This document shows positions 23,053 through 56,335 of a DNA stretch of 56,335 bases, in pieces. A program made the translations under genes and the position numbers. The notes below the pieces were generated by a model. It was given only the letters and a program-made list of their open reading frames with translations. It did no database searches and was not told the DNA's origin. The number at the start of each line of letters is the position of its first letter. The first letter of the stretch is position 1. Location of the stretch: IMG/VR virus record IMGVR_UViG_3300045988_137693; one strand, given 5' to 3'. The stretch comes from a virus.

Positions 23053-23076
23053 ACTTTTTTGCAGAAAGGAACCGTC

Positions 23077-24324: not shown

Positions 24325-24355
24325 GGAATCACGGCTTTTCATTTTAGGAGTCATC

Positions 24356-24949
24356 ATGACATTCACGTTCAATCAGCATACTGACCTTCAAGGTAAGCAC
24401 GCATATTTGAGTGCCAGTCATCATGTCTGGCTCAACTATGACGATGAGCATTTCAAGGATATCTTCTATTCCAATCTCATGAAGGAACGTGGCACACAGC
24501 TTCACGCCTTCGCCGAGTTTGCGAATAGGATGGGCCGGAAGATGCCGCGCAATCATGAGACCATCAACGAGTTCATCAATGATGGCCTTGGATACAACAT
24601 GAGCCCTGAAGTGGTGCTCTATTACAGCGAGTATTGTTTCGGGACTGCCGACCTTATCGGTTTTGATCCGAAGAAGAAACTGCTTCGAGTGTTTGATCTC
24701 AAGACCGGTCAGAAGGATGTGCTCGAGTTCGGACAGCTGCATGTGTATTGCGCTCTGTTCTGTCTCGAGTACAACATCAAACCGGACGATATCAATTTCG
24801 AATGCCGACTCTATCAGAATGATGAAGTTCGCATTGAAGAGTTTACTGATCCGGAAACCATCAAGGATATTATGGATCTTATCGTTCACGATGATAAGAT
24901 GATTCGTGAACTTCGCGCCGAAGCGAAAGCTAATAAATTGATCTTCTAG
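24356..24949 (+). CDS. RecB/Cas4-like PD-(D/E)xK exonuclease
   Basis: TADLIGF...LRVFDLKTGQ, then GQLHVYCALF (QLxxY-like). Confidence 0.7.
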   Translation: MTFTFNQHTDLQGKHAYLSASHHVWLNYDDEHFKDIFYSNLMKERGTQLHAFAEFANRMGRKMPRNHETINEFINDGLGYNMSPEVVLYYSEYCFGTADLIGFDPKKKLLRVFDLKTGQKDVLEFGQLHVYCALFCLEYNIKPDDINFECRLYQNDEVRIEEFTDPETIKDIMDLIVHDDKMIRELRAEAKANKLIF

Positions 24950-24962
24950 AAAGGAGCGGATT

Positions 24963-27764
24963 ATGGCTGAAGAGTCATATTCTGGTGATGACGAGTCGTT
25001 GTATGACTTCGAGCATTACGGTACTCCACATCAGGGTGCCACTCCGCATTCCGGACGGTACAAATGGGGTTCTGGCGATGAGGATTCCTTGACCAGAGCC
25101 AATGGCTTGCTGGGTCAAGTGGCTCGGCTCAAAGAGCAAGGGATCAAGAATTCAACAGAGATCGCACGAGCGCTTGGCATGACTACCACCGAGTACCGAG
25201 CACGATATTCCATGGCCTGGAATGAAGCCGAGAACTATACTCGTAACCGAGCGCTGAACCTTCAGAAGCAAGGCTGGGGTGCTACAGCTATCGGCAAAGA
25301 GCTTGGACGTTCTGAATCGACAGTCCGTGGCTGGCTCAAAGATGGTCGCGAGGTTCGCAATGATATCGCAACAGATATCGCTGAGAAACTCATGGCCTCT
25401 GTTCCGAAGAACGGTGGTCTTGATATCGGTAAATCCCAGGAATTGTATCTGGGGGCATCTGCCGATAAGCTCAAGGTTGCAGTGCAGATGGCAGTCGATA
25501 AGGGCTATGAAGTCCACTACATGTATGAGAATCAGCTCGGTACCGGTCCTGGCCAGAAGACGACCCTTAAGCTGTTGACCGCTCCTGGTGTCAAGGTTTC
25601 TGGCCCTGAAGGTCTGTATGCTCATCGTGAGCGTATCGCTTTCTTGGCAAAAAATCTTGACGACATTCCCGAAGGATCTTCCGGAGCACTGAAGCCTCCA
25701 GTATCGATCGATAGCAAGCGAGTTAAGATCGTTTATGCTGAAGACAAGTTTGCTGGATTCAAGGGCGTCGAACGAGATGGCGTGATGCTGATTAATCCCA
25801 AGGCTCCTGATCTTCAGTTGCCGGATGGTAAACGTTACGCTCAGGTTCGAATTGCCGTTGATGGCACTCACTACCTCAAGGGTATGGCGCTCGTTGGCGA
25901 TCCTCGGTCGTTCCCTCCTGGCGTCGATGTGGCCTTCTGCACCAACAAGCACAAGGGCACTCCGAAGATGGATGTTCTGAAGAAGATGCAGACTATCAAG
26001 TCTACCAACGGAACAGAAGTCATCGATACTGAGAACCCGTTCAAGGCCGCAGTGCGTTTGCAGCCTATGTATGTGGATCCGAAGACCGGTAAGAAGAAGC
26101 AATCCGCCCTGAATATTCTGAACACCGAAGGCGATTGGGATGGTTGGTCGAAGAATCTTCCATCTCAGATGCTTTCCAAGCAGGAACCTTCATTTGCTTC
26201 TCAGCAACTCGGTATCGCTCTGGATCGTTCTCGATTGAATCTGAAAGAAATCAAATCGTTGACCAATCCAGTCGTCAAGCAAAAGCTTCTTCAAGAGTTT
26301 GCTGACGAATGCGATTCCGCTGCCGTTTCTTTGAAGGCCGCTGCCGTCCCACGTCAGAAGTCTCATGTGATCCTTCCGATTAATTCGTTAAGTGATCGTG
26401 AGATCTATGCGCCGAACTACCGAAATGGCGAGAAGGTGATGCTGGTTCGTTATCCGCACGCTGGTCGATTTGAGATGCCTGAACTTGTGGTGAACAATCG
26501 AAACAAGGAAGGTCTTAAATACATCGGCAATGCGAAGGACGCAGTCGGCATTAATTCCAAAGTAGCCGAACGTCTATCAGGTGCTGACTTTGACGGAGAT
26601 ACTGTTCAGGTAATTCCGAATAAAAGTGGTCAGATTAAGAATGCCGCTCCATTGAAAGGACTTCAGGGATTCGATCCCAAAGAATCATACGCTTTGCCAA
26701 AAGACATCAAGCCTAACGACAAACGTTTGATTTCTCCTGAGATGAAGCAGCGTCAGATGGGTATCGTATCCAATCTGATTACCGATATGACAATCAAAGG
26801 CGCTCGTCCTGACGAATTGGTTCGAGCAGTTCGCCATTCCATGGTAGTGATTGATTCCGAAAAGCATAAGCTTGATTGGAAACAATCCGAGACTGATAAT
26901 AACATCAAGGCTCTCAAGGAGAAGTTCCAAAGTGGTGGAGCTTCTACACTTGTTTCAAGAGCTAAGGGTGTGGTCCGTCTTCCGGAGCGTAAGCCCCGAT
27001 CCATGAAGAATGGCGGTCCGATCGATCCTGAGACCGGTGAGAAGCGTTACGAACTTACCGGCGAGTCTCACAGTCGAGCAGTTCGTAATTCGAAGGGTGA
27101 GGTTGTTCGTTATGAAACAGTCCCCAACCTTACGAAGTCTACGAAACTTGCCGAGGCTAAAGATGCTAGGGAACTTTCTTCTGGTACTTTGATGGAATCT
27201 ATTTATGCTCGTTACTCTAACGGCATGAAAGATTTGGGTAACCAATCTCGAAAGGCCTACCTCCAGGCGGAGCCTTTCAAAGTAGACCCCCAGGCGAGAA
27301 AAACATACGCCCCTGAAGTTAAGAAGATGGTAGCCCAGCTCAATGAAGCCAAGAAGAACCAACCTCTAGAACGCCAGGCTCAGGTCATAGCCAACGAGAG
27401 GCTTCGCGCCATCAAGGAAGATCATCCTGACTATGACAAGGAAGATCTCAAGAAGGCTGGACAAAAAGAGCTCAAACGAGCTAGAGCTATTGTTGGTATT
27501 CAATCCAAGAGGGTGGATCTTACGGATCGAGACTGGGAGGCAATTCAAGCAAGGGCCATCTCAGCTAACAGACTTCGTGAGATACTGCAATACGCTGATC
27601 CCGATCGAGTTCGAGAACTGGCTACTCCGAGAAAGAAAGAAAAGCTTCCTTCTTGGGCTATTGCTAGAGCGAAATCGCTCATGAATGCTGGCTATACCAA
27701 TGCAGAAGTCGCAGATGCTTTGGGTATTTCGACTTCAACATTGTCTGAGAACCTTGGGAAGTGA
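24963..27764 (+). CDS. Candidate single-subunit two-barrel RNA polymerase (RdRP/QDE-1/YonO-like catalytic motif) flanked by HTH motifs
   Basis: VMLVRYPHAGRFEMPELVV...AERLSGADFDGDTVQVIPN (DFDGD at 26586-26600) parallels R-x-P...GGDLDGDTY of RdRP-family enzymes and NADFDGD of beta-prime. HTH-like motifs: STEIARALGMTTTEY, ATAIGKELGRSESTVRGWL, TNAEVADALGISTSTLSENL. Confidence 0.6.
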   Translation: MAEESYSGDDESLYDFEHYGTPHQGATPHSGRYKWGSGDEDSLTRANGLLGQVARLKEQGIKNSTEIARALGMTTTEYRARYSMAWNEAENYTRNRALNLQKQGWGATAIGKELGRSESTVRGWLKDGREVRNDIATDIAEKLMASVPKNGGLDIGKSQELYLGASADKLKVAVQMAVDKGYEVHYMYENQLGTGPGQKTTLKLLTAPGVKVSGPEGLYAHRERIAFLAKNLDDIPEGSSGALKPPVSIDSKRVKIVYAEDKFAGFKGVERDGVMLINPKAPDLQLPDGKRYAQVRIAVDGTHYLKGMALVGDPRSFPPGVDVAFCTNKHKGTPKMDVLKKMQTIKSTNGTEVIDTENPFKAAVRLQPMYVDPKTGKKKQSALNILNTEGDWDGWSKNLPSQMLSKQEPSFASQQLGIALDRSRLNLKEIKSLTNPVVKQKLLQEFADECDSAAVSLKAAAVPRQKSHVILPINSLSDREIYAPNYRNGEKVMLVRYPHAGRFEMPELVVNNRNKEGLKYIGNAKDAVGINSKVAERLSGADFDGDTVQVIPNKSGQIKNAAPLKGLQGFDPKESYALPKDIKPNDKRLISPEMKQRQMGIVSNLITDMTIKGARPDELVRAVRHSMVVIDSEKHKLDWKQSETDNNIKALKEKFQSGGASTLVSRAKGVVRLPERKPRSMKNGGPIDPETGEKRYELTGESHSRAVRNSKGEVVRYETVPNLTKSTKLAEAKDARELSSGTLMESIYARYSNGMKDLGNQSRKAYLQAEPFKVDPQARKTYAPEVKKMVAQLNEAKKNQPLERQAQVIANERLRAIKEDHPDYDKEDLKKAGQKELKRARAIVGIQSKRVDLTDRDWEAIQARAISANRLREILQYADPDRVRELATPRKKEKLPSWAIARAKSLMNAGYTNAEVADALGISTSTLSENLGK

Positions 27765-38872: not shown

Positions 38873-39973
38873 ATGTCTCTCAATGGTATCGATATCTCGA
38901 ATTGGCAGGCCTACATCGATCTTACTGCTGTTCCCGCCGATTTCGTCATCGCAAAGGCCACTCAGGGGACCGAGTACGTATCCCCCGATTGTGCTCGACA
39001 GGTCGAACAGGCACGTGCGACTGGAAAGCGCTTTGGCGTCTATCATTACGTCTCCGGTGGCAACGCCGTCGCCGAAGCCAATCATTTTGTCGACAGCTGT
39101 ATCAATTGGGTCAACGCAGGTCTGTTCTGCATCGATTGGGAAATTCAAGAGAATTCCGCTTGGGGCGATGAGGGGTATCTTGAACAAGTCGTCGCTCAGG
39201 TGAAGGCTCGTACGGGAATTCCTCCGCTCATTTACTCGTCGGCAGCTTATTATGCTCAGGTTGCTGCTGTCGCCAATCGTCAGAACTGTGGTCTGTGGAT
39301 CGCGCAGTATGCGAATAATGTCCCTACCGGATATCAGGACACTCCGTGGAATGAAGGCGCTTACGCTTGCGTCATTCGCCAGTATTCTAAAACCGGTCGT
39401 CTTCCTGGTTATGACGGCGATCTGGATCTCGATAAGTTCTACGGCGATGGAGCCACGTTCGACAAGTATGTGACCGGTGGCGGAAACGCTTCGAATGTTC
39501 CTCCTTCACAGCCTGCCGATCCGCTCGCCGGACGTTCCGATGACGATCTCGCCAATGCTGTGATTCGTGGTGAATTCGGTGACGGCGATGCTCGCAAGCA
39601 GAAGCTTGGCAGTCGTTATGCTGCCGTTCAGGCGTTGGTGAATCAGAAGCTCGCTGCTCCAGCATCCCCTGGTCGGACATATACGGTTCAGCCCAACGAT
39701 ACCCTGTCGACGATCGCTGCCAAACTTGGTGTGGATCAGTCTCAAATCACCGGATTCCATTCCGGTAATCCGAACCTGATTTATCCGGGCGAGGTGCTGA
39801 ATATTTCTGGAGGATCGCCACAGCCGACTGCCGAATACTACACAGTTCAGTCGGGTGATAATCTGTCGACTATTGCCGCTCAATACGGCACCAGTTGGCA
39901 GCACATTCGTGATCTGAATGGTTTGTCGAATCCTGATCTTATCTATCCTGGTCAGGTTCTTCGCGTTAGGTAA
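38873..39973 (+). CDS. Endolysin: GH25 muramidase + two LysM domains
   Basis: NGIDISNWQ...[12 protein letters not shown]...GVYHY...IDWE. Two copies of YTVQxxDxLSxIAA...IYPGxVL. Confidence 0.9.
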
Positions 39974-46900: not shown

Positions 46901-48607
46901 GTTCTTCAGAACGTTCCTTCTGATGACGGTTGGTGGCAGAAGATTGCCGGTGGCAAGAGCTGGGGCACGCTTACTGAAGGTCTGAAGGGTCTCGGCGAAG
47001 CGCTTGCCGGATATGGCACAGCCGTATCGGGCGATGGCGTTAACGTCGGAGCCATTCAGAAGACGGTTCCGGCAGTCAAGTCGTTGACCGAGATTCTGAA
47101 GAGCGACTTCAGTCAGGTCGGCGATTTCGGTCCTATAAAGAACGCCGCAACGCAGCTTGGCAACGGTCTGGCTGGATACTATAACGCCGTTTCCGAGGTT
47201 TCGCCTGATGCCATCACACCGACGTTCGCTCCATTGCGTTCCTTGATCAATGTCGTCAACAGTCTTGGCGGCATGAAGATGGAAGGCACATCAGTCGGAT
47301 TCATCACGGCCGCAACTCAGCTCGGTATCGGATTGTCGAACTACACGAAGAACGTGGCCGAACTGGACTTCTCGAATATTTCGGCCAGTGTCAGTGCCGT
47401 TGGTTCGTTGTCCAAGGTCATGGGCGGAATGCCGGCCGAGTATGGCGGAGTCACGGCGTTCCAGCAAGCTGTATCCACGCTCGCCGCGACATCGTTCATG
47501 TCTCTGGCCAGGTCCATTCAAAATGCCAATAGTTCCATTAGTACTGGTCTGTCCGATTTGAACACGGCGTTGAGCACTGGCACAACGACCTTGACCGGAT
47601 CAGTGAATGCTCTGAATTCCGCTTTCCGTGATATCAATCTGAGCGGCGATCTCTCGTCTCAGATGAGTGCTGCTGCAAGTGCTGCGAATTCTGGAGCAAA
47701 TCAGATCCGTTCGGCATTGAACGCTCTCGCCACTTGGTTGAGCGGTTTCGCTTCGATCTGGCAGGCATCGTTCACGCCGATAATCGGAGCCACTCGTACC
47801 GGCCTCAACCTGGTCGCTCAGGCGATTTCCTCGTACAACGGTCGTTTCTCGCAAGAGGGACGTAGTTTGGCGAATAGTCTGGGCAGCGGCATGCGTTCTG
47901 GCATCGGCAACCTTTCGAGTATCTTCAATAGCGCTCTGAGTGCCGCCGTCGATGGTGCTCGTGCGTATCGAGGAAGCTTCGAGAGTGCCGGTTTCTACCT
48001 TGCGGCTGGTTTGGCCGTGGGCATATCACGCAATTCCGACGCTGTCAGCAGGGCAGCAGCAGATGCTGTGTCGAATGCCGTTGCGGCAGCCAGGGAAGCA
48101 GGCGACATCAATTCGCCGTCACGTGTCATGGCTAAGGTCGGCATGTGGTTCGACAAGGGTCTGGAGAACGGTATCGCCGATAATGTCGGTGGCGTCGTTC
48201 GAGCCGCAAAGACCATGATGACGAGAAGCATCGATGTCGTCGATGCTTCGTTGAGCAATATCGGCAAGATCGATATTCCGGAATTCGACGTCAATCCGAC
48301 CATTACTCCGGTGATGGATCTATCGGTCGTCGAGGGTCAAGCCGCGTATCTGAATTCCATGCTGTCCGACACAGTTGGCATCGGATATTCGTCCAAGATG
48401 ATTGGCAAGATCACTGCGATTCCTCGTCAGAGGGATACCGGTCATGCTGTCGAAAGTGTTGAGAAGACCCCTCAGCAAATCATTAACAACTACGACTTCA
48501 CGCAGAACAACACTTCTCCGAAGGCGCTCAGTCGTTATGATATCTACAAGCAGACCCGTACGCAGTTCCGTCAATTCGAGCAAATGAATCGAAATGGAGG
48601 TCGATGA
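40919..48607 (+). CDS. Tape measure protein (2562 aa)
   Basis: Size, position, long helical and hydrophobic repeats. Confidence 0.9.
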   Translation: MANIDERVVKLSMDDSSLQQGVSRVTKALEQLKKAFNFSDTKSFEELDKAAKKVKFDSVSKSASDMQKDVSKATSKAADDFAEMGSSAQKSVQQIGAASDNVNLTGVASAANKMSDQVQQSAAEANSAIGKIGTNTVGIQQTVDAIDGINDAANRVDLSPIQKGVENVKMGISSMRDSLTNSVNTFKATPIGEQLDAVQPHFKALEAIGVVAMGNLAAKAATYGMQLASNLTNGIRSGFEEYETQLNSVQTILANTQKEGANLTQVNTALNQLNTYADKTIYNFTEMTRNIGTFTAAGVDLQTSVNSIKGIANLAAISGSSSAQASTAMYQLSQALATGTVKLMDWNSVVNAGMGGQVFQDLLVQTSEKLQTGAKQYIAAEGSFRDSLQKGWLTSDVLTQSLNILAMDITDVEKAVQSLVSKGYTEEEARQLVQLAQTAQDAATKVKTFSQLIDTAKEAVGSGWSQSMQILFGDFEEAKDLWTGVSDEINNIINAQSQARNQLLSSGFSSGYKQLVNQGIVDTQSFQDILTNLGNRDYVSGLINQYGSFEKSLHAGWLTAGMLKDGVAQLTQKVDGYDDATKQNLGITNEQINQLHALNAGLQNGSISADDFAKKMQRMSGRENVIQGLANIWNSLKTIIQAVGKAWDEVMPSMSGDTIYALTEAFRKFTEGLKPSPQLLNVITTATKGVATAFKAFLGVVGLAAKGFGTLLGFAGKVAGSFINIASSAINGAKAFAEYVKQSKVVTNAVKLWEASFSSFGTVLKTIGDSISGVFDGLFDGAKKGTSGFPDILGIISKTLAGCAQEVNNYGTEFQTAFQAKFGSVPEIAQKVSDKVSSAIQSLRPAFNWIGDRLQEIGEAIQRFFGDLNGKITLDQILSLINGGLLTGVLVGLRKFIKGLNEVGDDLEKSTFKGALKKTLDDIGNSFKDFAKSFKIVSITAIAASIKLLADALTQLSTIRTEKIMPALGAMTAIITVMTGMMAGLAALAEVTNKAGKLVFDFDALNKVALAMVALGASMKLMAEAAYMLKDMDPAQIAVIFGSMATAIVALGGSIALMGTAKPERLNAVGTNMIKLGAGFVLMASSLVVLARAILMIASVKPDDLARSMNAVALGIVLLTTAMGGLGAGAKFGADYSGVGKNILLMVTALIPLALAIKILGTMDLDDLAKGLGAVAIGLGVLAGAMAGLGYIQGMGGSYGKSAAAIMAFATAMVLLAVPIKVLGGMDLDDLAKGVGALVITLGAFAGAMALFSKFNGQFAGMLMASAAILSFATAAVALTIPIKVLGGMDLNSLAKGLSGFGLALAGMVAAMNLMPNNMSGQAAGMMAFAAGITVLAVAIRLMGSMDIKQLVTGLTGFYGALVGLGFAGTVLGPMAVELIAVAKAMGVFGLACLAIGAGMALAGAGLTALAATGSAAGGILMTALDALIQFIPALAKSLVTALIGVLQAIVAALPQILDALSSILRDLMAWLVQQVPAVADAVVTMIDKILQVVAAHADTITDSLVTILVAALNAVAGHAPEITAALGNVMTAIFTAIADSIRNLDPSVLTSLLLSVGVMALIFKALAKMKKDVVGALMVGGTMIGLMAALTGVFALMNLLNPVNTVASAVSLSTALIVMTGAFKIMETAKKHVIGALAVGSAMAAILAELALVFGLMSAMNIDNVGTIAASLSGTILAISATAAIMSLVNVGAAMSGVAALATFIAGLAAIVVAAGAIKQIPGVDWLVSEGAAFMAKIGAALGGFIGSIAGAITGAIMGAIGSSLPALATGLSNFMTNLKPFIAGAKEIDGSVATAVDTLANVVLKLTASNLLDAITSFITGGNGIENFGTKLVPLGQALKDYSAVVADLNSASIVSSAMAAQALTQVLNALPADDGLWQRIAGSKDWSTLSDGLVQMGMALSMYGVAVTGLQPGPISASIEALNGLNGVLNAVPSDDGWWQKVAGGKDWSTLSTGLTGMGKALAGYGKAVSGDGVNIDAIQKTVPAIKKLNEVLQNVPSDDGWWQKIAGGKSWGTLTEGLKGLGEALAGYGTAVSGDGVNVGAIQKTVPAVKSLTEILKSDFSQVGDFGPIKNAATQLGNGLAGYYNAVSEVSPDAITPTFAPLRSLINVVNSLGGMKMEGTSVGFITAATQLGIGLSNYTKNVAELDFSNISASVSAVGSLSKVMGGMPAEYGGVTAFQQAVSTLAATSFMSLARSIQNANSSISTGLSDLNTALSTGTTTLTGSVNALNSAFRDINLSGDLSSQMSAAASAANSGANQIRSALNALATWLSGFASIWQASFTPIIGATRTGLNLVAQAISSYNGRFSQEGRSLANSLGSGMRSGIGNLSSIFNSALSAAVDGARAYRGSFESAGFYLAAGLAVGISRNSDAVSRAAADAVSNAVAAAREAGDINSPSRVMAKVGMWFDKGLENGIADNVGGVVRAAKTMMTRSIDVVDASLSNIGKIDIPEFDVNPTITPVMDLSVVEGQAAYLNSMLSDTVGIGYSSKMIGKITAIPRQRDTGHAVESVEKTPQQIINNYDFTQNNTSPKALSRYDIYKQTRTQFRQFEQMNRNGGR
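44395..45100 (+). repeat. Tandem, roughly 170-190-bp coding repeats within the tape measure gene (hydrophobic LGxMDLxxLAKGLG... units)
   Basis: Units start near 44396, 44584, 44773 and 44944. Confidence 0.7.
46530..47105 (+). repeat. Three tandem 192-bp coding repeats within the tape measure gene (VPSDDGWWQKxAGGKxWxTL... units)
   Basis: Units start near 46530, 46721 and 46913. Confidence 0.8.
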
Positions 48608-49533
48608 TGTTTCAGTCTATGACTGTTACGAATGCTCGTGGCGACACGCTCGATCTCCCCATCCGAAACCCAATGGCGACTGGCTATAACGTCGTCGCCA
48701 TTGACGGTCTCGGACCGGTCGATGCCGTGCTTCAGACCAGCAACACCGTCACCACCGACGGCGTGATCTTCAATGGCGCCCGTAAGGATGAGCGCGAGAT
48801 CACCATCAATCTCGCGTATCATCCGGAATCGGGTAAGAACATTGAGGATCTTCGGCATGGAACATACAGGTATTTCCCCGAAAAAGAGGAAGTCACCTTG
48901 GTGTTCCATGCCGACACCCGTTCGGTTCGTACGACCGGCATCGTCGAATCGAACGAGATTTCGATATTTTCCGAAAAAGAGTCGTCGTCGATCGTTGTCA
49001 AATGCCCCGATCCATGGTTCAGGATAGATAACGAGCTGAATAGGATCACATCGTTCTCCAACATCGAACCGGTGTTCGAATTCCCGTTCAACTGGGCAAA
49101 TAATCCGGTGAGTGAACCGAATGCGTTGTGGTTTGGTGCCATTCAGAATATGCATTCGAAAAACATCATGTATGATGGCGAATCAGAAGTCGGCGTGATC
49201 ATCCGTATGTCGTTTGATGGCCCGGTGAATAATATTCGCATCTATAATGAAGAGGCCGGTCAGGAGATCGACGTCTTTACGGATAAGGTCGGACAGATCA
49301 TCCCCGACGGCATCCGAAAAGGCGATGAACTGGTTATTTGCACGGTGCCGAAGCAGAAGTACGTTGAGATCATTCGAGACGGTATCTCGACTAACATTCT
49401 CAACGCCATCAATCGAGACGTGCGATTCATCACGTTGCATAAAGGCGCGAATACCATCGTGTATTCCGCCGATTCCGGTGTGGATAACATCCTCGTGTCG
49501 ATCGAGAACGAAACGTTGTATACAGGAGTGTGA
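48604..49533 (+). CDS. Distal tail protein (Dit)
   Basis: Immediately after the tape measure; typical N-terminal pattern TVTNARGDTLDLP...VVAIDGLGP. Confidence 0.8.
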   Translation: MMFQSMTVTNARGDTLDLPIRNPMATGYNVVAIDGLGPVDAVLQTSNTVTTDGVIFNGARKDEREITINLAYHPESGKNIEDLRHGTYRYFPEKEEVTLVFHADTRSVRTTGIVESNEISIFSEKESSSIVVKCPDPWFRIDNELNRITSFSNIEPVFEFPFNWANNPVSEPNALWFGAIQNMHSKNIMYDGESEVGVIIRMSFDGPVNNIRIYNEEAGQEIDVFTDKVGQIIPDGIRKGDELVICTVPKQKYVEIIRDGISTNILNAINRDVRFITLHKGANTIVYSADSGVDNILVSIENETLYTGV

Positions 49534-51446: not shown

Positions 51447-52355
51447 ATGACAAGAATTCTCGATGCACACGGCAACGAACTCAAGCTGGAAGACATTGAT
51501 CTGAATGCCGGCAAGCTTGTTGACGAGACCATTACCGTCCATCATGACGCTGTTGAAGGCGTCGAGGAAGTATCTCATGTCGAGGTGCTCAAAGAATACT
51601 ACGAGACTGGTCCGGATGGCGAACCGGTTCTCGATGAGGACGGTCATAAGATCGTCTTCGGCAAGGATGTAAAGACCATCATTGATGTCCCAGGCGTTGA
51701 GGCCAAGCCAGCTTACGACGAACAGGAAGAGATCCAGCGATACATCCCGTATACCGCTGAAGAACTCGATAAGATCGCCAAAGAGAAGGCCGACGCCCAG
51801 GCCAGTGCGGCCGTTGCGGACGCTGAAAAGTTGGCGATTCGTCTCATTGTGCAGAAAATCGCTCCGTCGCTATCCACGGACGAACTGATGCAGGTCGCAG
51901 CGATTCTCCCGAACTGGGATGCGTCGAAGACGTACACTGAAGACGATATCGTCCGTTATCAACAGAGCCTGTATCAGGCCATTGGCGAGGTCCCGGCCAA
52001 CACGGTTCCTGATGCGGCTACCGACAAGTGGAAGAACCTGACGAAGCCGGTCGATGGGGTCGCACGATGGATTCAGCCGAACAGCGCGGAGAACGCGTAT
52101 GATTCAGCGGCCGTCGTCATGCATGACGATGAGCAGTGGTTCTCCGATGAGGATTACAACATGCATGAACCCGGTGTCGACGGCTGGACGTCGAATGGTG
52201 ACGCCGTCGCCGAGTGGGCCCAGCCGACCGATGCGAACAATGCCTATGCCGAAGGCGCCGTGGTGCGTCATAATGGCAAGCGATGGGTTTCAACGGTGTC
52301 CGGCAATGTCTGGGAGCCCGGTGCTTCCGGAGTGACCCGGTGGGTCGAATCCTGA
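51447..52355 (+). CDS. Tail fibre / receptor-binding protein with two C-terminal carbohydrate-binding-like repeats
   Basis: Repeats ARWIQPNSAENAYDSAAVVMHDDEQWFS and AEWAQPTDANNAYAEGAVVRHNGKRWVS (CBM5/12-like W..Y..G motif). Confidence 0.6.
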   Translation: MTRILDAHGNELKLEDIDLNAGKLVDETITVHHDAVEGVEEVSHVEVLKEYYETGPDGEPVLDEDGHKIVFGKDVKTIIDVPGVEAKPAYDEQEEIQRYIPYTAEELDKIAKEKADAQASAAVADAEKLAIRLIVQKIAPSLSTDELMQVAAILPNWDASKTYTEDDIVRYQQSLYQAIGEVPANTVPDAATDKWKNLTKPVDGVARWIQPNSAENAYDSAAVVMHDDEQWFSDEDYNMHEPGVDGWTSNGDAVAEWAQPTDANNAYAEGAVVRHNGKRWVSTVSGNVWEPGASGVTRWVES

Positions 52356-52367
52356 TAGAAGTCTCAT

Positions 52368-53405
52368 ATGGCACGTATTAACAGTTATACCAAGATCACC
52401 GGAGCACCGGCTGATTCCGACTGTTTCATCATCGACTCGACGCAGGGCACCGCAGGCACCCGAATCGTGTTGTGGTCCGTGTTGAAGAGCGTTCTCACTG
52501 GCATATTCGCCTCTAAAAGCCATAAGCATCCGGGCAGTGATATCACGTCAGCTGTCGCCAACGCCAATGCCGCCATCAACGATTCCACCGGTCAGAACAT
52601 CGCCTCGACGTATGTGAAGGAGATCACCGCGAACGGCAGGACCATCACGGTGAAACGCGGCAACGACACGACCTTCACGTTCCAGACACAGGATACGAAC
52701 ACAACGTATCCTGTTGCTGATGCTAGTAAGTCTGGTATTATGGCTGCTAGCGATTGGTCTCTTCTGCATTCGCTGAAGGCCATTAATAAGGCGGTTGATA
52801 TATCAGATGGTACCAATCTGAATTCGTACAATTCGGTTGATGAATGCGGATGGTATTATGCCCATGGCGGCAACAATGTGACCAATAAGCCGTCAGGCGT
52901 CGACCATTTCGGTATGTTCCTCATGCGGATGGCGACGGGAGTGATCTCTCAGATCCTGTACGACAACAGTAACAAGATCTGGACGAGGTCATTTGGTTCT
53001 AATAGATGGAGCTCGTGGACCGCTCTGGTCCGAACGACCGATACGATCGACAACGCCACGAACGCCACCAAGGCAACGCAGGACTCCGCCGGTCAGACCA
53101 TCAATACGACCTATGTGAAGTCCATTACCGCATCCGGCCGCACGGTCACCGTGACCAAGGGCAATGGTACGACCTCGACGTTCACCACGCAGGATACGAC
53201 ATACTCCGCAGCCACGCAGTCGGCTGACGGTCTGATGTCGTCCGCCGATAAGCGGAAGCTCGACGGTCTGTCCGGCGATTACACTTCAGCCATCGGTCTC
53301 GCCACGTCCTCGAAGGACGGTCTGATGTCCAAAACCGACAAGGCGAAGCTCGATGCGATTGGATCGATATCCAACAGTACGATCGACGGTTTCTTCAGAA
53401 TTTGA
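52368..53405 (+). CDS. Tail fibre protein with internal repeats
   Basis: Duplicated DSxGQxIxxTYVKxITAxGRTxTVxxGNxTT.TFxTQDT blocks and GLMSxxDKxKLD motifs. Confidence 0.75.
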   Translation: MARINSYTKITGAPADSDCFIIDSTQGTAGTRIVLWSVLKSVLTGIFASKSHKHPGSDITSAVANANAAINDSTGQNIASTYVKEITANGRTITVKRGNDTTFTFQTQDTNTTYPVADASKSGIMAASDWSLLHSLKAINKAVDISDGTNLNSYNSVDECGWYYAHGGNNVTNKPSGVDHFGMFLMRMATGVISQILYDNSNKIWTRSFGSNRWSSWTALVRTTDTIDNATNATKATQDSAGQTINTTYVKSITASGRTVTVTKGNGTTSTFTTQDTTYSAATQSADGLMSSADKRKLDGLSGDYTSAIGLATSSKDGLMSKTDKAKLDAIGSISNSTIDGFFRI

Positions 53406-53429
53406 TGATATTTTAGGAGGTATGATATC

Positions 53430-53882
53430 ATGGTAGCTTATCTTGACGAGGCGGGGGCTCGGTATCTAGTCAAGAAGGTTCTTGACCGGATCCAGCCCGT
53501 TGGATCTCTCTATTTCAGCACTAATAGCACGTCCCCAGCGAGTTTATTCGGTGGCACCTGGGAACGCTATGCGCAGGGACGAGTAATGGTCTCTGCATCG
53601 GACACCGATACAGATTTCACCGTCGGCAAAACCGGCGGAGAGAAGACGCATAGTCATTGGCTACCGCTTGGTATGGAGGATTTCTCCAACGGTGTGTTCT
53701 CTGTCACTTGGACGCGCAGTAACCAAGGTGGCGTCCGACGTCGAAGCATCGCTCCCGGCCATCACGATCTCTACTCCCCGGACTCCAGATCACCGCACTC
53801 GAACGGCACCGAGGAACAGTCGTATTCCGAGTCGAGTCTTCAGCCGTATGTTGCAGTGTATGTGTGGAGAAGGACCGCTTAA
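53430..53882 (+). CDS. Tail-tip protein 1 (PVGS..GGTWE...QPYVAVYVWRRTA family), current orientation of invertible cassette A
   Basis: taggagg RBS. 74-aa constant part ends in the 31-bp repeat; a 76-aa variable C-terminus follows. Confidence 0.8.
   Translation: MVAYLDEAGARYLVKKVLDRIQPVGSLYFSTNSTSPASLFGGTWERYAQGRVMVSASDTDTDFTVGKTGGEKTHSHWLPLGMEDFSNGVFSVTWTRSNQGGVRRRSIAPGHHDLYSPDSRSPHSNGTEEQSYSESSLQPYVAVYVWRRTA
53622..53652. repeat. Inverted repeat A, left copy (31 bp, in frame, encodes VGKTGGEKTH)
   Basis: gtcggcaaaaccggcggagagaagacgcata; exact reverse complement at 54085-54115. Confidence 0.95.
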
Positions 53883-54084
53883 GCGGTGCGACGCCAAATA
53901 TAGACAGCCACATATGGCTGCAAATTGTTATGCGGCATGTTTCCACCAGCCGATTTAGTTTGAGCAATATTGACGAACGAATCATCACGTCGACCGGCTT
54001 TTACTTTACCAGCGTATGGCGAATTAGTTCCATCAGCTACTGATATATCATGAGTGTGGGATGCCAACTCATCCACTGTAAGCG
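53653..54084. mobile_element. Putative invertible segment A (432 bp) carrying two convergent alternative C-terminal modules
   Basis: Bracketed by the perfect 31-bp inverted repeat. The two stop codons overlap within the palindrome ACCGCTTAAGCGGT (53874-53887). Confidence 0.7.
53879..54084 (-). CDS. Promoterless alternative C-terminal module (68 aa) for tail-tip protein 1
   Basis: Read from the right repeat: (VGKTGGEKTH)TLTVDELASHTHD...GGNMPHNNLQPYVAVYIWRRTA*. No RBS or start of its own. Confidence 0.7.
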
Positions 54085-54115
54085 TATGCGTCTTCTCTCC
54101 GCCGGTTTTGCCGAC
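54085..54115. repeat. Inverted repeat A, right copy
   Basis: tatgcgtcttctctccgccggttttgccgac. Confidence 0.95.
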
Positions 54116-54140
54116 TCCTCACGGAAAGGCAAGACCTATA

Positions 54141-54710
54141 ATGGTTGCATATTTGGATCAGGCAGGTGTACAGCACCTCATTGCTAAGATTCGCGATACG
54201 TTTTGGCCGGTCGGCACGATTCTGGCGACGACCACCAACACATCACCGGCGTCCTATCTCGGAGGCTCCTGGGAGGCGTATGCTCCCGGAAGGACGCTGG
54301 TGGGTGTAGATGCTTCTCATCCGCTTAACAGTACTGGTGGAAGCGAGACACATGAACATGGTCCAGGAACATTTGGTGCACAGGTCTCGCTTGACGGACA
54401 GAACACCGTCGTGCGACGTGTCCGTCTTTCCTCGTTCAAGGGTGATGTGCGCAAGAGCGGTGCCATCAATGGCGGTTCGTTCGACGCAACCTGGGGAGCT
54501 GCCATCGCCGGACATTCCGACATATGGATTCATGAGCGGAAGGTTTCCATAAACCTTCGTTCCATTACCAGTCTTTTTACTATTCCAGTTCACACCGCCT
54601 CTAGTTTCCAATTCAAATCCAAACGCGATACTAACAGGAATATGTGCATTGTCGTCTTTCCATACGACGTGTATTCCAGCATGATCGTTGAAGTTCGTTC
54701 CAGCCGCTAA
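54141..54710 (+). CDS. Tail-tip protein 2 (paralog of protein 1), current orientation of cassette B; atypical C-terminus, possibly degenerate
   Basis: MVAYLDQAGVQHL..PVGTIL..YLGGSWEAYAPGRTLVG, then VDASHPLNSTGGSETHEH.... It lacks the QPY..WRRTA end, and the last ~65-80 aa are antisense to the - strand module. Confidence 0.5.
   Translation: MVAYLDQAGVQHLIAKIRDTFWPVGTILATTTNTSPASYLGGSWEAYAPGRTLVGVDASHPLNSTGGSETHEHGPGTFGAQVSLDGQNTVVRRVRLSSFKGDVRKSGAINGGSFDATWGAAIAGHSDIWIHERKVSINLRSITSLFTIPVHTASSFQFKSKRDTNRNMCIVVFPYDVYSSMIVEVRSSR
54255..54306. repeat. Inverted repeat B, left copy (52 bp, in frame, encodes YLGGSWEAYAPGRTLVG)
   Basis: tatctcggaggctcctgggaggcgtatgctcccggaaggacgctggtgggtg; exact reverse complement at 54788-54839. 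Confidence 0.95.
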
Positions 54711-54787
54711 ATCAGTCGAACGGCCGACATCAACGGTTTTCGCACCACCCTGCTTGTTGAGAGTGAAGTCGGTATCCGTTGTGGACG
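54307..54787. mobile_element. Putative invertible segment B (481 bp)
   Basis: Bracketed by the perfect 52-bp inverted repeat, with family-like coding on both strands reading inward. Confidence 0.6.
54471..54787 (-). CDS. Promoterless alternative module for tail-tip protein 2 (no stop codon at the expected terminus)
   Basis: Read from the right repeat: (GRTLVG)ASTTDTDFTLNKQGGAKTVDV...GNLPLMNPYVGM..VERTA. Compare ASDTDTDFTVGKTGGEKT and GNMPHNNLQPYVAV in cassette A. Confidence 0.5.
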
Positions 54788-54839
54788 CACCCACCAGCGT
54801 CCTTCCGGGAGCATACGCCTCCCAGGAGCCTCCGAGATA
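54788..54839. repeat. Inverted repeat B, right copy
   Basis: cacccaccagcgtccttccgggagcatacgcctcccaggagcctccgagata. Confidence 0.95.
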
Positions 54840-54861
54840 TTATATAGAAAGGATCATATCA

Positions 54862-55188
54862 ATGGATTGGATCGAAATGTTGATTACAATCGCTGGATCG
54901 GTATTCACATCCAGTGGATTGTGGACGTTGATCCAGTATAGAGTAAAACAAAAAGATACCGGAATTCTTATGACTCGTGGTATGGCACATTACCGAATCA
55001 TAGAGGAGGGTCAGAAATTCATCGATCGCGGGTGGATCACCCATGAGGAATATGACGACTTCATGAAGTATCTTGGCGACCCTTATCTGGAGTCCGGATC
55101 AAATGGTCTGGCGAAGAAAATGATCGACGACATATCCGACCTTCCGTTCAAATCGGTTTCGTCGATTCGTAGTACTATGGATCATTAA
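54862..55188 (+). CDS. Membrane protein with an N-terminal TM segment; possible holin or lysis accessory
   Basis: gaaagga RBS then ATG 54862: MDWIEMLITIAGSVFTSSGLWTLIQY... Confidence 0.5.
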   Translation: MDWIEMLITIAGSVFTSSGLWTLIQYRVKQKDTGILMTRGMAHYRIIEEGQKFIDRGWITHEEYDDFMKYLGDPYLESGSNGLAKKMIDDISDLPFKSVSSIRSTMDH

Positions 55189-55230
55189 GACGTCGCGTGA
55201 CATACATGGCTCTCAATGAAAGGAGCCATT

Positions 55231-55530
55231 ATGAACAACGACAAGATCTCTAATGGACACTATGAAGCACAACTCAAGAACGGATACTTAAGGATCAAGG
55301 GTGTAACACATCTTGGATGCTTAGCACTTACCGGTACCGTATATGACGGTGATATTCGTATACCATGCGAAGTCATCGAAAAAGACGGACTGGTAAGATG
55401 TGTAAGTTTCAAGCTGAAATATATGCCTTGGTTTGCTGGTAGAAGTTTTGTTAAGGGTTTGAAATTCATCATGTTCCCAAAAAGGATCTGTAAATCGAAA
55501 GCCATCATAGAGGCAATCATTTCAGAATAA
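55231..55530 (+). CDS. Hypothetical protein (99 aa)
   Basis: aaaggag RBS then ATG 55231. Confidence 0.55.
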   Translation: MNNDKISNGHYEAQLKNGYLRIKGVTHLGCLALTGTVYDGDIRIPCEVIEKDGLVRCVSFKLKYMPWFAGRSFVKGLKFIMFPKRICKSKAIIEAIISE

Positions 55531-55574
55531 AGCATAAGAGCCTATGCACCACGCATGGGCTCTTATGCTTTTCT
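55531..55574 (+). terminator. Intrinsic terminator (12-bp stem)
   Basis: Stem agcataagagcc/ggctcttatgct, then tttt. Confidence 0.75.
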
Positions 55575-55606
55575 CACGTAAATCATAGAAGAAAGGATCA
55601 TATATC

Positions 55607-55903
55607 ATGGCCGAACACGCCGATCAGAAAACGTCATTTCTCACCGATGCAGGTTATGACGGCCTCATCAAGGCTGCACGTCGATGGCTGCCAGCGCTCA
55701 GTGTCTTGCTGATCGTGATCGCCGGTGTCTGCACGCAGCTCGGTCACGTCCCCGGCATGGAGGCCGCCACGGCCGGTCTGGCCACGGTTTCCGGTATCTG
55801 TATGGCACTGAGCTGGGGTATCAACGAGCTGCTCAAGCGTGCCAAGGATCAGTGGAACACGTCGACTGATTCAGACAACACCACTGAGAGTACTGCCGAA
55901 TGA
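55607..55903 (+). CDS. Probable holin (two TM segments)
   Basis: WLPALSVLLIVIAGVCTQLG and LATVSGICMALSWGINELL, with a charged C-terminus. Confidence 0.55.
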   Translation: MAEHADQKTSFLTDAGYDGLIKAARRWLPALSVLLIVIAGVCTQLGHVPGMEAATAGLATVSGICMALSWGINELLKRAKDQWNTSTDSDNTTESTAE

Positions 55904-55909
55904 TATCGT

Positions 55910-55946
55910 ATAAGAGCCTATGCCACGCGCATGGGCTCTTATATTT
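55910..55946 (+). terminator. Intrinsic terminator, near-duplicate of the one at 55531
   Basis: Stem ataagagcc/gggctcttat, then atatttt. Confidence 0.7.
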
Positions 55947-55954
55947 TGTCTCGA

Positions 55955-55984
55955 CGCGAATCGTACATGGCCTTTAATGACAAG
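55955..55984 (+). promoter_or_regulatory. Conserved promoter-like box, copy 9
   Basis: cgcgaatcgtacatggCCTTTAATGAcaag. Confidence 0.55.
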
Positions 55985-56008
55985 AGAATCTATCATAAAG
56001 GAGCAATC

Positions 56009-56218
56009 ATGAACGATACATTTACTTATGTCAGCCAACAGCACAGCCAGCACACTTGCCTGGAGCTTGTTCGGTGGATCAAGAACCACTGCGATCCGGA
56101 AACGGAGAGCGGTATTCTTACGACCAAGACGAAGAAGCTTCGGGTGATTATGGTCACTACCAACCTGGAAGACATGAGCGCATTCGCAGATTATCTAAAG
56201 ACCATCACTCTCGTCTGA
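56009..56218 (+). CDS. Hypothetical early protein (69 aa)
   Basis: aaaggag RBS then ATG 56009. Confidence 0.6.
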   Translation: MNDTFTYVSQQHSQHTCLELVRWIKNHCDPETESGILTTKTKKLRVIMVTTNLEDMSAFADYLKTITLV

Positions 56219-56225
56219 AAAAGGT

Positions 56226-56262
56226 GAGCCGCACATGCGGCTTGCTCTTTATTTTTTTTTTT
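56226..56262 (+). terminator. Intrinsic terminator (CCGCACATGCGG core) with an 11-T run
   Basis: gagccgcacatgcggcttgctctttattttttttttt. Confidence 0.75.
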
Positions 56263-56335
56263 CGCGCATGACACATGTCCTTTATTGAAGAAATTCAACA
56301 ATATCAAAGGAGTAATCATGCTTATCATCGACAAG

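Follow-up and report, generated by a model that had tools for sequence, protein, structure and literature searches.

A probable two-state inversion switch in a Gp10_C-type distal-tail gene of human-gut phages

Introduction

Switching of the tail tip determines which bacteria a phage infects, and inversion of the Mu G, P1 C and p15B Min segments serves such a change of host range. To our knowledge, the known tail switches all come with their own invertase, and most belong to temperate phages that infect Gram-negative bacteria. In phages of Gram-positive gut bacteria, receptor-binding proteins are also already known to be switched by inversion (PMC6109161). In the Rin shufflon of Bifidobacterium prophages, several cassettes are each preceded by an 11-bp rix site (TTCCCTAACCC) and are flanked by the gene of a tyrosine invertase (Mavrich et al. 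2018, PMC6109161). In architecture, the published system most similar to the locus described here is that of the tRNA-Met-integrated bifidoprophages 689b-1 and Bb423phi2, which differ by a ~500-bp inversion with no recombinase alongside; the inverted segment contains the 3′ end of a structural-region gene and a small opposed gene (PMC6109161). Programmed inversion targets reported by Milman et al. 2023 include tail-fibre and 'phage tail collar' genes (PMC9881135), and at the SpnIII hsdS locus of S. pneumoniae inversions persist without a known site-specific recombinase or homologous-recombination pathway (PMC6620402).

Here we analyse the human-gut phage IMGVR_UViG_3300045988_137693. The window, that is the whole stretch of 56,335 nt, is a complete circle of ~56.25 kb, as indicated by an 86-nt terminal overlap and by relatives whose sequence runs from the window end into the window start. 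It contains a segment, cassette A, that is very likely a real and recurrently used DNA-inversion switch within a structural gene. The switch is of the Mu G, P1 C and Rin kind; what is new is the target protein family, the tandem arrangement of cassettes and the fact that no recombinase was detected in cis.

Results

Organization of cassette A

Cassette A comprises one constant N-terminal coding part and two C-terminal modules, which lie tail to tail between the arms of a perfect inverted repeat. Its features are as follows.

53430..53882, + strand: gene A, an ORF of 150 aa and the penultimate gene of the tail module, encoding a distal-tail protein of the Gp10_C family
53430..53621, + strand: constant N-terminal part of gene A, codons 1-64, retained in either orientation
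53622..53652, + strand: left arm of repeat A, 31 bp, GTCGGCAAAACCGGCGGAGAGAAGACGCATA, in frame from codon 65
53653..54084, no strand: invertible segment A, 432 bp between perfect arms
53653..53882, + strand: expressed variable module, codons 75-150, 76 aa, SHWLPLGMEDF...SLQPYVAVYVWRRTA and a stop; module type 6
53874..53887, no strand: palindrome ACCGCTTAAGCGGT, perfect over 14 bp and containing both overlapping stops
53879..54085, − strand: silent variable module, 68 codons and a stop, TLTVDELASHTHD...QPYVAVYIWRRTA; module type 9
54085..54115, − strand: right arm of repeat A, 31 bp, the exact reverse complement of the left arm

Gene A has a ribosome-binding site, AGGAGG, 9 nt 5′ of its ATG. 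The perfect 31-bp repeat with 432 nt between its arms, as described in an earlier note on this DNA, is present, and none of 100 dinucleotide-preserving shuffles gave such a match even with 3 mismatches allowed. Translation confirms that the left arm lies in frame in gene A and encodes V65-GKTGGEKT-H74 (VGKTGGEKTH) plus base 1 of codon 75, and it also confirms the 76-aa + strand module and the 68-aa − strand module proposed in the note. The C-terminal end of the expressed module is also given as SHWLPLGMEDF...QPYVAVYVWRRTA before the stop. Reading from the right arm along the − strand yields VGKTGGEKTH-TLTVDELASHTHD...NNLQPYVAVYIWRRTA and a stop, 68 aa beyond the arm. The note had further held that this module lacks a ribosome-binding site and a start codon of its own, and this is borne out: its frame contains a TGA two codons ahead of the arm, no in-frame start is preceded by a ribosome-binding site, and the sole mechanical start, GTG at 54076, is located within the module. 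The − strand module is therefore silent in the present state. The outer flank of the right arm is a non-coding spacer 5′ of gene B.

The stop codons of the two modules, TAA at 53880-53882 (+) and at 53881-53879 (−), overlap inside the perfect 14-bp palindrome, as the note had read them. An imperfect palindrome of 42 nt (53841-53920) surrounds this core and exists because the modules share one conserved terminal peptide; as single-stranded DNA it has a folding energy of -20.6 kcal/mol (z = -5.0), and the central palindrome is also present in relatives. A role as a two-way terminator was considered and rejected, as the terminator scan gave no stem followed by a T-run there. We note that part of the palindrome region forms a weak terminator-like hairpin on the − strand (53921-53904).

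Both modules complete one Gp10_C domain

The gene A protein matches Pfam PF21939 (Gp10_C) over profile positions 2-139 of 139 (7.1e-19, 69.6 bits, cutoff 27), and it also matches PHROGs 24267, 6465 and 5717 (tail). The silent module alone matches profile positions 55-139 (36.9 bits, 8.8e-9), which is the C-terminal 60% of the domain, so that one Pfam domain is completed by either module. Comparison with the C-terminal fragment of T4 gp10 (2FKK, E = 4.2e-6) aligns residues 14-66 of the gene A protein with gp10 50-106 and residues 123-149 with gp10 179-205; the alignment includes the motif QPY.(A/T)VY.W and covers the constant part and the last strand. Judged by these profile matches, gene A is a T4 gp10 C-terminal-domain-type protein over its full length. 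The AlphaFold2 monomer model has a mean pLDDT of 47.8 and reaches pLDDT 74-79 only at residues 27-53 and 140-148. Literature searches returned no paper that mentions PF21939, which fits the statement in the note that the family is not a described inversion target.

The opposite orientation is found in related phages

Flipping of 53653-54084 had been proposed to swap the C-terminus of the gene A protein, and comparison with related phages supports this. Three proteins of 142 aa each (P0001, P0002 and P0003) are 95, 94 and 85% identical, at 100% coverage, to the protein obtained by flipping the segment in silico, and thus the chimera exists as a 142-aa protein. The silent module of the window is expressed, fused to the constant part, at five related loci (L001-L003, L023 and L093). 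The search for the opposite orientation in related genomes, which the note had suggested as a check, was therefore positive, with the window differing in orientation from L001, L002, L003 and L023. In L001 the flank is 94% identical to the window and collinear to 53652, after which the sequence continues as 54115->53839, inverted.

Clean inversions were also found between contigs with near-identical flanks. L031 and L037 share flanks of 99.0% and 100% identity, and the 530-bp cassette between them is inverted at 99.8% identity, with the breakpoints in the arms. L007 and L010 have flanks that are 96-97% identical and an inverted cassette that is 98.8% identical, and the cassette is likewise inverted in the pairs L016/L022 and L017/L025. 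All these flips were observed between separate assemblies, and flipping within one phage population is presumed. The sole assembly with two contigs, CYGL01 (L092 and L102), was considered as a possible example and represents two strains with different module pairs, not two orientations. Four 90-aa proteins (P0009, P0014, P0030 and P0062) were considered as a sign of longer repeats and rejected; their first residue is Met53, internal to gene A, and they are therefore read as shortened calls of the flipped-state gene.

Silent modules are conserved across a family of cassettes

A census of human-gut phage contigs gave 45 A-type and 22 B-type cassettes, and both modules are intact in 66 of these 67 cassettes, all of which passed the filter. 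The left arm of repeat A occupies the same place, with near-identical sequence, in the 45 cassettes of related phages. Every cassette contains exactly two tail-to-tail modules, and the module diversity comes from two tandem cassettes and from differing module pairs between genomes. The pool contains at least 11 recurring, putatively interchangeable tip modules, with 14 sequence clusters altogether. In cassette A, all module types seen more than once occur both fused to the constant part and silent. Module type 6, which is expressed in the window, is expressed in 8 relatives and silent in 3, with a dN/dS of 0.21-0.24 in either state. Within types, the dN/dS values for silent-silent versus expressed-expressed comparisons are 0.27/0.30, 0.34/0.35, 0.34/0.37 and 0.24/0.21. 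These values show that silent modules are under purifying selection like the expressed modules (dN/dS ~0.2-0.4). The intact state of the silent modules and the equal selection on them also support the proposed C-terminus swap.

The constant part of gene A is almost invariant among 50 homologues and collinear at every related locus. Synonymous-site conservation was compared between the arms and the rest of the constant region, and the whole region is nearly invariant among close relatives. The arms of one genome are identical to each other but vary from genome to genome (position 10, A/G; GAGAG versus AAGCA), a pattern of concerted evolution. The arms are not always homogenised, since four genomes carry mismatched arms (18 exact bp).

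Dozens of independently assembled gut metagenomes contain relatives. A megablast comparison of 52300-56335 with INPHARED phages was negative; the lineage is absent from the isolates deposited there. Among cultured phages, Bifidobacterium phage BitterVaud1 has the nearest homologue of gene A (42% identity), and an exact look-up of the 150-aa protein gave no record. The GTDB bacterial genomes scanned contain only relatives of at most 41% identity, in Bacillota and other MAGs, and none of these carries an inverted-repeat cassette; hence the GTDB scan provided neither a host nor a prophage version. Endolysin and terminase relatives suggest that the host is probably an actinobacterium.

A second cassette in tandem

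Gene A is followed by a paralogue that carries a second cassette, with the features below.

54141..54710, + strand: gene B, a gene A paralogue carrying cassette B, matching Gp10_C profile positions 2-65 only
54255..54306, + strand: left arm of repeat B, 52 bp, a perfect inverted repeat, encoding YLGGSWEAYAPGRTLVG
54517..54524, no strand: deletion junction at the centre of cassette B, with 86 bp lost relative to the intact L100 cassette
54788..54839, − strand: right arm of repeat B, 52 bp

Conservation of repeat B extends to 22 related cassettes, whose exact arms range from 26 to 68 bp. In the window, the 86-bp deletion, whose end points share a 4-nt microhomology (CGAC), took the conserved ...PYVAV.YWRR.A ends of the modules together with both stop codons, and because of it gene B reads through into antisense sequence. 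Among cassettes B, one module type is silent in 14 of 14 cases and another is expressed in 15 of 16, and these skewed states therefore point to either rare flipping or strong selection for one state. A phage in which cassettes A and B are both intact could produce 2 x 2 tip combinations. No motif common to arms A and B was found: their longest common string, of 5 nt, is at chance level.

No recombinase was detected in cis

The scans covered nearly every ORF of at least 50 aa in the complete circular genome, with the exception of the large terminase, the portal and a 2562-aa ORF. They revealed no serine, tyrosine or DDE recombinase; neither a Resolvase domain (PF00239), and hence none adjoining segment A, nor a Phage_integrase domain was detected. 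No reverse transcriptase domain was detected in them either. A diversity-generating retroelement was considered and rejected on this ground and because the repeats, unlike the A-mutated direct copies of such an element, are identical and inverted. A six-frame search with the serine-recombinase pattern Y.R.S(T/S)..Q gave no plausible ORF; the only match, on the − strand near 32857, is antisense in the terminase gene and broken by a stop. Four more distant relatives likewise contain no recombinase within 4 kb on either side. The neighbours of genes A and B are holin-like proteins of ~100 aa, and no conserved gene of unassigned function adjoins the cassettes. Elsewhere the genome encodes an exonuclease (24146-24949) and an ssDNA-binding protein (16011-16538).

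The gix, cix and hix crossover sites are 26 bp long with the consensus ...AAACC NN GGTTT.... Searched with this consensus, the window gave one gix/hix-like match with 1 mismatch, at 29003, which is at chance level. The arm of repeat A contains CAAAACC-GG, but its other half is CGGAGAG, not GGTTT. Allowing 1 mismatch, the window still contains no rix site, and the 8-bp boundary sequence of the bifidoprophage inversion (CAGGGTTA) and its complement are absent from the 31-bp and 52-bp arms. The note's analogy to Mu G, P1 C and Min extends only as far as the gene-splicing logic: no invertase was detected in the complete genome and the arms are unlike gix and hix.

Proposed mechanism and alternatives

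We propose that the 432-bp segment is inverted by recombination between its identical 31-bp arms. Since VGKTGGEKTH is encoded in one phase by either arm, 74 constant codons join either module: the 76-codon SHWLP... module, as now, or the 68-codon TLTVDELASH... module. In either product, the module would provide both the middle of a T4-gp10-C-terminal-type domain, which is variable, and its conserved last strand (QPYVAVY.WRRTA). Since the protein is located at the far end of the tail module, the switch most likely alters binding at the virion tip, and its position and the analogy to known systems suggest that receptor or host range may change with it.

Our preferred reading, which is the least certain step of this proposal and to which we give slightly less than an even chance, is that no dedicated invertase is involved. 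In that case the identity of the short arms would drive the exchange, by way of general recombination of the host or phage or of strand switching in replication, and selection would keep the arms identical. For the widespread lineage of ~57-kb human-gut phages as a group, we tentatively suggest a programmed, in-frame tail-tip inversion that works without a dedicated recombinase or uses a recombinase of an unrecognised family, a generalization that is somewhat more doubtful than not. Short perfect repeats (27-68 bp) would here be kept by selection as substrates for general recombination or strand switching. For efficient RecA-type recombination, arms of 25-36 bp are short; their size is typical of invertase sites, and we know of no well-studied phage tail-fibre switch without a dedicated invertase.

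The alternative that survives best, which we consider possible though not probable, is a site-specific invertase of the host that acts in trans on a short core, globally as Bacteroides Mpi does, with a separate core or enzyme for cassette B. The arm length typical of invertase sites would be expected in this case, as would the outer arm boundary, which is fixed per lineage, and the equal selection on silent and expressed modules, which implies an efficient process. All A arms, even those with mismatches, agree only around CCGGCGGA, and arm B contains a small dyad, TCCTGGGAG-GCGTATG-CTCCCGGA; either may mark a core. A trans-acting enzyme has also been proposed for the bifidoprophage inversion without a recombinase (Mavrich et al., PMC6109161). 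However, no candidate enzyme can be named, arms A and B share no motif above chance, and neither resembles gix, hix or rix. A phage with no detected integrase would have to rely wholly on the host enzyme, and perfect identity over 52-68 bp in cassette B exceeds what a core site needs.

An unrecognised recombinase encoded by the phage itself is unlikely. Many ORFs have no Pfam or PHROG function (for example 17684-18271, 23044-23541, 8592-9488 and 9370-10041), and a 933-aa multi-HTH protein (24963-27764) has a weak match to the resolvase HTH_7 domain. Against this, the HTH matches are generic, no catalytic-domain signature of a known recombinase class was found, and the genes beside the cassettes are the holin-like ones, with no conserved unassigned gene among them.

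It is very improbable that the segment no longer flips and that its repeat and second module are merely left over from an old duplication or inversion. The single orientation in this one assembly, the damage to cassette B in this genome and the mismatched arms of some relatives are compatible with such a fossil. They are outweighed by the exact flips between contigs with 99-100% identical flanks, by the occurrence of all repeatedly seen cassette A module types in both states, by silent modules that are intact in 66 of 67 cassettes with the dN/dS of expressed ones, and by arms that are identical within genomes and variable between them. The earlier note had held that reads of a single orientation, together with a flipped state never seen in relatives, would make the repeat a fossil, and the fossil reading is contradicted at the lineage level. 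Finally, mis-assembly of two co-occurring strains with different C-termini is hardly credible: the sources are metagenome assemblies and five short contigs (L002, L003, L089, L090 and L091) end inside or beside the cassette, but the same architecture, with the silent module in frame with the arm and then a non-coding spacer, is found in more than 45 contigs from various studies and assemblers, some at ~60-fold coverage (L088 and L098), and common assemblers use k-mers longer than arms of 27-36 bp.

Discussion

These observations describe, in an abundant human-gut phage family, a compact two-state switch that is often present in tandem and acts on a protein family new to inversion. If true, programmed inversion without an invertase would be a distinct strategy of host-range variation. 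If confirmed, the cassettes would provide a tractable case for inversion at short in-frame repeats without a dedicated enzyme, a question that SpnIII also poses, and the recurring tip modules, at least 11 in number, would provide a pool for the study of receptor recognition. Confirmation would also mean that orientation states can mislead host-range prediction and strain-level virome analysis, and it would explain contig breaks at the cassette locus.

The Mu G/Gin, P1 C/Cin and p15B Min systems resemble this locus in that inverted repeats lie inside a tail gene with one constant N-terminus and alternative, promoter-less C-terminal parts are stored in the opposite orientation. Those segments are 3-4 kb long and include a chaperone gene, whereas segment A is 432 bp and contains two C-termini only. 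They are served by an adjacent serine invertase, gix/cix sites and a Fis-bound enhancer, while here no invertase was detected and the arms are unlike those sites. The target is a long fibre in those systems and a 150-aa Gp10_C-type protein here, and the phage in this case, a human-gut phage in which no integrase was detected, probably infects an actinobacterium.

The hsdS loci (SpnIII/cod) share in-frame inverted repeats within a specificity gene and silent partial copies alongside. They are located on bacterial chromosomes and usually include a tyrosine invertase, whereas the present cassettes belong to a phage without a detected integrase and to another protein family.

The Rin shufflon is also found in gut phages of a Gram-positive host, and it joins a constant receptor-binding-protein N-terminus to variable C-termini by inversion. 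It differs in having several cassettes, a tyrosine invertase and rix sites, where the locus described here has exactly two modules per cassette between perfect 31-bp or 52-bp repeats, no detected recombinase and no rix site. The receptor-binding protein is TP901-1/1358-like in Rin and of the Gp10_C type here.

The 689b-1/Bb423phi2 inversion comes nearest, and the likeness is one of architecture: ~500 bp there and 432 bp here, each with the 3′ end of a gene, an opposed coding piece and no recombinase found beside it. That inversion was described from one prophage pair, with an 8-bp boundary and gene functions unassigned. In contrast, the switch proposed here has 31-bp arms and an identified domain, recurs in dozens of genomes with evidence of selection, and occurs as two tandem cassettes.

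An invertible cassette near the end of the tail module

The 31-mer GTCGGCAAAACCGGCGGAGAGAAGACGCATA at 53622-53652 forms the left arm of cassette A and recurs as its exact reverse complement at 54085-54115, with 432 nt separating the two arms. In shuffled windows, a 31-mer inverted match was never obtained, even with three mismatches allowed. The left arm starts at codon 65 of gene A, the penultimate gene of the tail module, and encodes VGKTGGEKTH. Beyond it, the + strand continues for 76 residues to the C-terminal end SLQPYVAVYVWRRTA, and the - strand, read from the right arm in the same phase, gives 68 residues (TLTVDELASHTHD...NNLQPYVAVYIWRRTA). Both TAA stop codons overlap within ACCGCTTAAGCGGT (53874-53887), the core of a 42-nt imperfect palindrome that exists because both modules share the same conserved C-terminal peptide and that can form a long hairpin (computed -20.6 kcal/mol, z = -5.0). 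In the - strand frame a TGA lies two codons ahead of the right arm, and no start codon preceded by a ribosome-binding site was found on the - strand of the cassette, so the minus-strand module is silent in the present orientation. Repeat search, translation and ORF reading thus bear out what the earlier note had read here: the in-frame 31-bp repeat, the tail-to-tail modules with stops overlapping in a 14-bp palindrome, and a - strand module with neither ribosome-binding site nor start.

Features of the tail module
2562-aa ORF, upstream of gene A: putative tape measure, from position only
48604-49533: Dit-like protein with Sipho_tail and SPP1_Dit matches; coordinates assigned from gene order
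Upstream of gene A, after the Dit-like protein: Sipho_Gp37 protein
Upstream of gene A, after the Sipho_Gp37 protein: protein with CBM_5_12 domains
Upstream of gene A, after the CBM_5_12 protein: fibre-like protein, 345 aa
53430-53882, + strand: gene A, 150 aa, with AGGAGG 9 nt upstream of the ATG
Downstream of gene A: its paralogue, gene B, then small holin-like genes

The gene A product matches the whole Pfam profile PF21939 (Gp10_C, the C-terminal domain of the T4 baseplate protein gp10) with 69.6 bits against a cutoff of 27, and its PHROG matches are tail proteins. The silent module alone aligns to profile positions 55-139. Compared with solved structures, residues 14-66 in the constant part align with the T4 gp10 C-terminal fragment 2FKK, as does the last strand, residues 123-149 (QPYVAVYVWRRT versus QPYITVYRWIRI); a structure model of the product was of poor quality. 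In an alignment of 50 homologues, the first 74 residues are almost invariant, the middle 55-90 residues are hypervariable and the end PY.AVY.WRRTA is invariant, and the inverted repeat falls exactly at the boundary between the invariant and hypervariable parts. We infer a receptor-binding role for this protein.

Many module types in both cassettes A and B carry an H-x-H motif at or near their start, directly after the arm (THSH, ASHTHD, AKHSHAP, PPHVHDL, THNHNPG; for example, in cassette A of the window at 53650-53660 and, on the minus strand, 54040-54060), reminiscent of the metal-binding HxH repeats that T4 fibre tips carry. The 345-aa fibre-like gene contains a 53-nt direct repeat (53211-53263 and 53301-53353, 74% identical) encoding a repeated peptide motif, DGLMS..DK.KLD, near the C-terminus of its protein.

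Both orientations occur in related phages

A 142-aa flipped protein, built in silico by joining constant residues 1-74 to the silent module, was searched against 5.8 billion proteins. The top matches, P0001-P0003, are 142 aa each and 95, 94 and 85% identical over the full length. L001, the contig of P0002, runs collinear with the window as far as 53652, at 94% identity, and then follows window 54115 to 53839 in reverse orientation at 92% identity; its cassette has its own 27-bp arms and a silent partner different from that of the window. Two other contigs, L002 and L003, have the same flipped junction. IMG/VR yielded 34 loci of the window's phage lineage (L004-L037), and a single metagenome-contig scan with a 27-nt arm core yielded 21 further loci, all those with recognisable labels being human-gut assemblies. 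In every one of these loci the cassette A arm occupies the same codon position; the arms match exactly over 18-36 bp and enclose spacers of 432-581 bp. Several pairs of contigs from separate assemblies differ by a clean cassette inversion with breakpoints within the arms. The opposite orientation, sought in related genomes, is therefore present, and the 142-aa chimeras together with the clean flips agree with the earlier proposal that inversion swaps the C-terminal end of this protein. More distant Gp10_C homologues, including weaker IMG/VR matches (L038-L072) and MAG matches (L073-L087), had no such cassettes.

Contig pairs differing by cassette inversion
L031 and L037: flanks 99.0% and 100% identical; inverted cassette 99.8% over 530 bp
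L007 and L010: flanks 96-97%; inverted cassette 98.8%
L016 and L022: flanks 90% and 100%; inverted cassette 97.6%
L017 and L025: flanks about 89-97%; inverted cassette 87.5%

A census of 45 A-type and 22 B-type cassettes, admitted if one module or both ended in the conserved motif, gave counts that are not phylogenetically independent. Both modules were intact in 66 of the 67. The variable parts fall into 14 clusters, 11 of them found more than once, and each cassette A type with more than one occurrence was found both joined to the constant part and silent. The SHWLP type, expressed in the window, was expressed eight times and silent three times; for the TLTVDEL type, silent in the window, the counts were two and three. 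The dN/dS ratio of a permanently silent module is expected to drift towards 1. Within each tabulated type, a simple pairwise estimate, partly saturated at synonymous sites, gave the same dN/dS for silent-silent as for expressed-expressed pairs, which indicates that modules switch between silent and expressed states fast relative to sequence divergence.

Pairwise dN/dS within module types
Type 1: silent-silent 0.27; expressed-expressed 0.30
Type 2: silent-silent 0.34; expressed-expressed 0.35
Type 4: silent-silent 0.34; expressed-expressed 0.37
Type 6 (SHWLP): silent-silent 0.24; expressed-expressed 0.21

The arms differ between genomes (position 10 A or G; GAGAG or AAGCA) and are identical within most genomes, a pattern of concerted evolution. 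Modules found in both states, intact silent modules, dN/dS parity and concerted arms together rule out, at the lineage level, a fossil repeat and an assembly artefact.

A second cassette in the paralogue

Gene B, which starts at 54141, is about 40% identical to gene A over the first 74 residues in a gapless comparison, and no DNA identity shared by the two genes exceeds 7 nt. Its cassette has a perfect 52-bp repeat, which encodes YLGGSWEAYAPGRTLVG and lies at another position in the protein than arm A.

Features of cassette B
54255-54306 and 54788-54839: inverted arms
About 54517-54524: deletion junction, with the stop codons and conserved C-terminal strands of both modules lost

In relatives, the two tail-to-tail modules of cassette B are intact and end in PYVAV.YWRR.A before the stop; both modules in the window are without this end. 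Compared with the intact cassette of L100, a related locus, the window has lost 86 bp spanning the central palindrome, and the end points of this deletion share the microhomology CGAC; gene B therefore reads into antisense sequence in whichever orientation. Unless the deletion is an assembly error, gene B of the window is probably defective. Unlike cassette A, whose modules are mixed in orientation, cassette B is strongly biased: among related loci (L001, L005, L018, L021, L025, L103, L107 and others), the THTISQQELPPHVHDL module is silent every time (14 of 14 cassettes), and the KTVDVGRSTD module is expressed in 15 of its 16 occurrences. Rare flipping would account for this bias, as would strong selection for one orientation in the gut. 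Some module types are shared by cassettes A and B, and a short prefix adjoining arm B is paired with different inner modules in different genomes, so modules are also exchanged between cassettes or between phages.

In some relatives (L004, at about 4916-4924, and L006) the cassette B interior is lost and gene B truncated at a site corresponding to window 54269/54825; the junction is a near-palindromic 9-mer, GGAG(G/C)CTCC, inside both arms. Given this loss, cassette B seems dispensable. Cassette A is present in nearly all members of the lineage.

Possible sources of the inversion

Window nt 1-86 equal nt 56250-56335, and relatives continue from the window end into its start, which indicates that the assembly is complete and circular, with a genome of about 56.25 kb. 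Apart from the large terminase, portal and 2562-aa ORFs, almost all ORFs of at least 50 aa were scanned against Pfam and many against PHROGs; none of those scanned resembled a reverse transcriptase or a recombinase of the serine, tyrosine or DDE class. The serine-recombinase active-site motif, sought in six frames, gave no match in a plausible ORF, and no recombinase was found within 4 kb on either side in four more distant relatives. A helicase and a primase-like protein are encoded, as are the following.

DNA-metabolism genes
24146-24949: exonuclease
16011-16538: putative ssDNA-binding protein

The arms of both cassettes bear no resemblance to gix/hix crossover sites or to the rix sites of the Rin shufflon, and the longest string shared by arms A and B is 5 nt, the chance level. 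The earlier analogy with Mu G, P1 C and Min thus holds for the splicing logic, but no invertase was detected and the arms are unlike gix/hix.

The gene-splicing step itself is well supported: exchange within the arms would fuse codon 74 in frame with one module or the other, and each of the two splice products is a complete Gp10_C domain. As to what makes the flip, we slightly favour exchange that relies on the sequence identity between the arms, which would proceed via general recombination of host or phage or via strand-switching in replication, because the genome has no detected recombinase, the two cassettes have unrelated arms, the B arms are perfect over up to 68 bp, and the arms of any one genome tend to be homogenised. 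There is a precedent in the pneumococcal SpnIII locus, whose in-frame hsdS inversions persist without a known site-specific recombinase, also in homologous-recombination mutants (PMC6620402). Nearly as likely is a host invertase acting on the arms in trans, which Mavrich et al. suggested for a similar recombinase-less bifidoprophage inversion (PMC6109161); the arms are about as long as invertase sites usually are, their outer boundary is fixed, and switching seems efficient. That the phage's own recombinase, of unknown family, makes the flip is improbable.

Host and other genome features

Relatives of the endolysin and terminase suggest an actinobacterial host. Annotated endolysins of Arthrobacter, Microbacterium and Solobacterium phages, as well as unannotated Bifidobacterium asteroides phage ORFs, share 34-41% identity with the endolysin.

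Other features
38873-39973, + strand: LysA-type endolysin, 366 aa, between head/connector genes and the 2562-aa ORF, distant from the holin-like genes at 54.8-55.9 kb
24963-27764, + strand: 933-aa protein with several helix-turn-helix matches at both ends; in its centre, residues 533-640 weakly match PF05183 (cellular RdRP family); candidate single-subunit two-barrel RNA polymerase of the phage, or else a regulator
55527-55571 and 55903-55947: 45-nt element, copies 82% identical, flanking the holin-like gene 55607-55903; each is a strong hairpin (AAAGCATAAGAGCCTATGC...GCATGGGCTCTTATGCTTT) kept in relatives, and the second scores as a terminator
3963-4757 (E = 1e-61) and 6844-7758 (E = 4e-55): paralogous DUF6353 proteins flanking a tail-assembly-chaperone-like ORF (5043-5501), at a distance from the tail module in this linearised map

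Comparison with known switches

Cassette A shares its switching logic with Mu G, P1 C, p15B Min and the Rin shufflon and is therefore not a new kind of system. It differs from them in its target, a small Gp10_C-type protein; in its minimal 432-bp segment with overlapping stop codons; in the presence of two independent cassettes in tandem paralogues; and in a phage genome with neither integrase nor recombinase gene detected. PF21939 is mentioned in no paper of the literature searched, and the inversion targets of Milman et al. include tail-fibre and 'tail collar' proteins, with the Gp10_C type not among them (PMC9881135), which fits the earlier view of this family as an undescribed inversion target. 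Among published systems, the one most similar in architecture is an inversion of about 500 bp in tRNA-Met bifidoprophages, a single case that is uncharacterised (PMC6109161).
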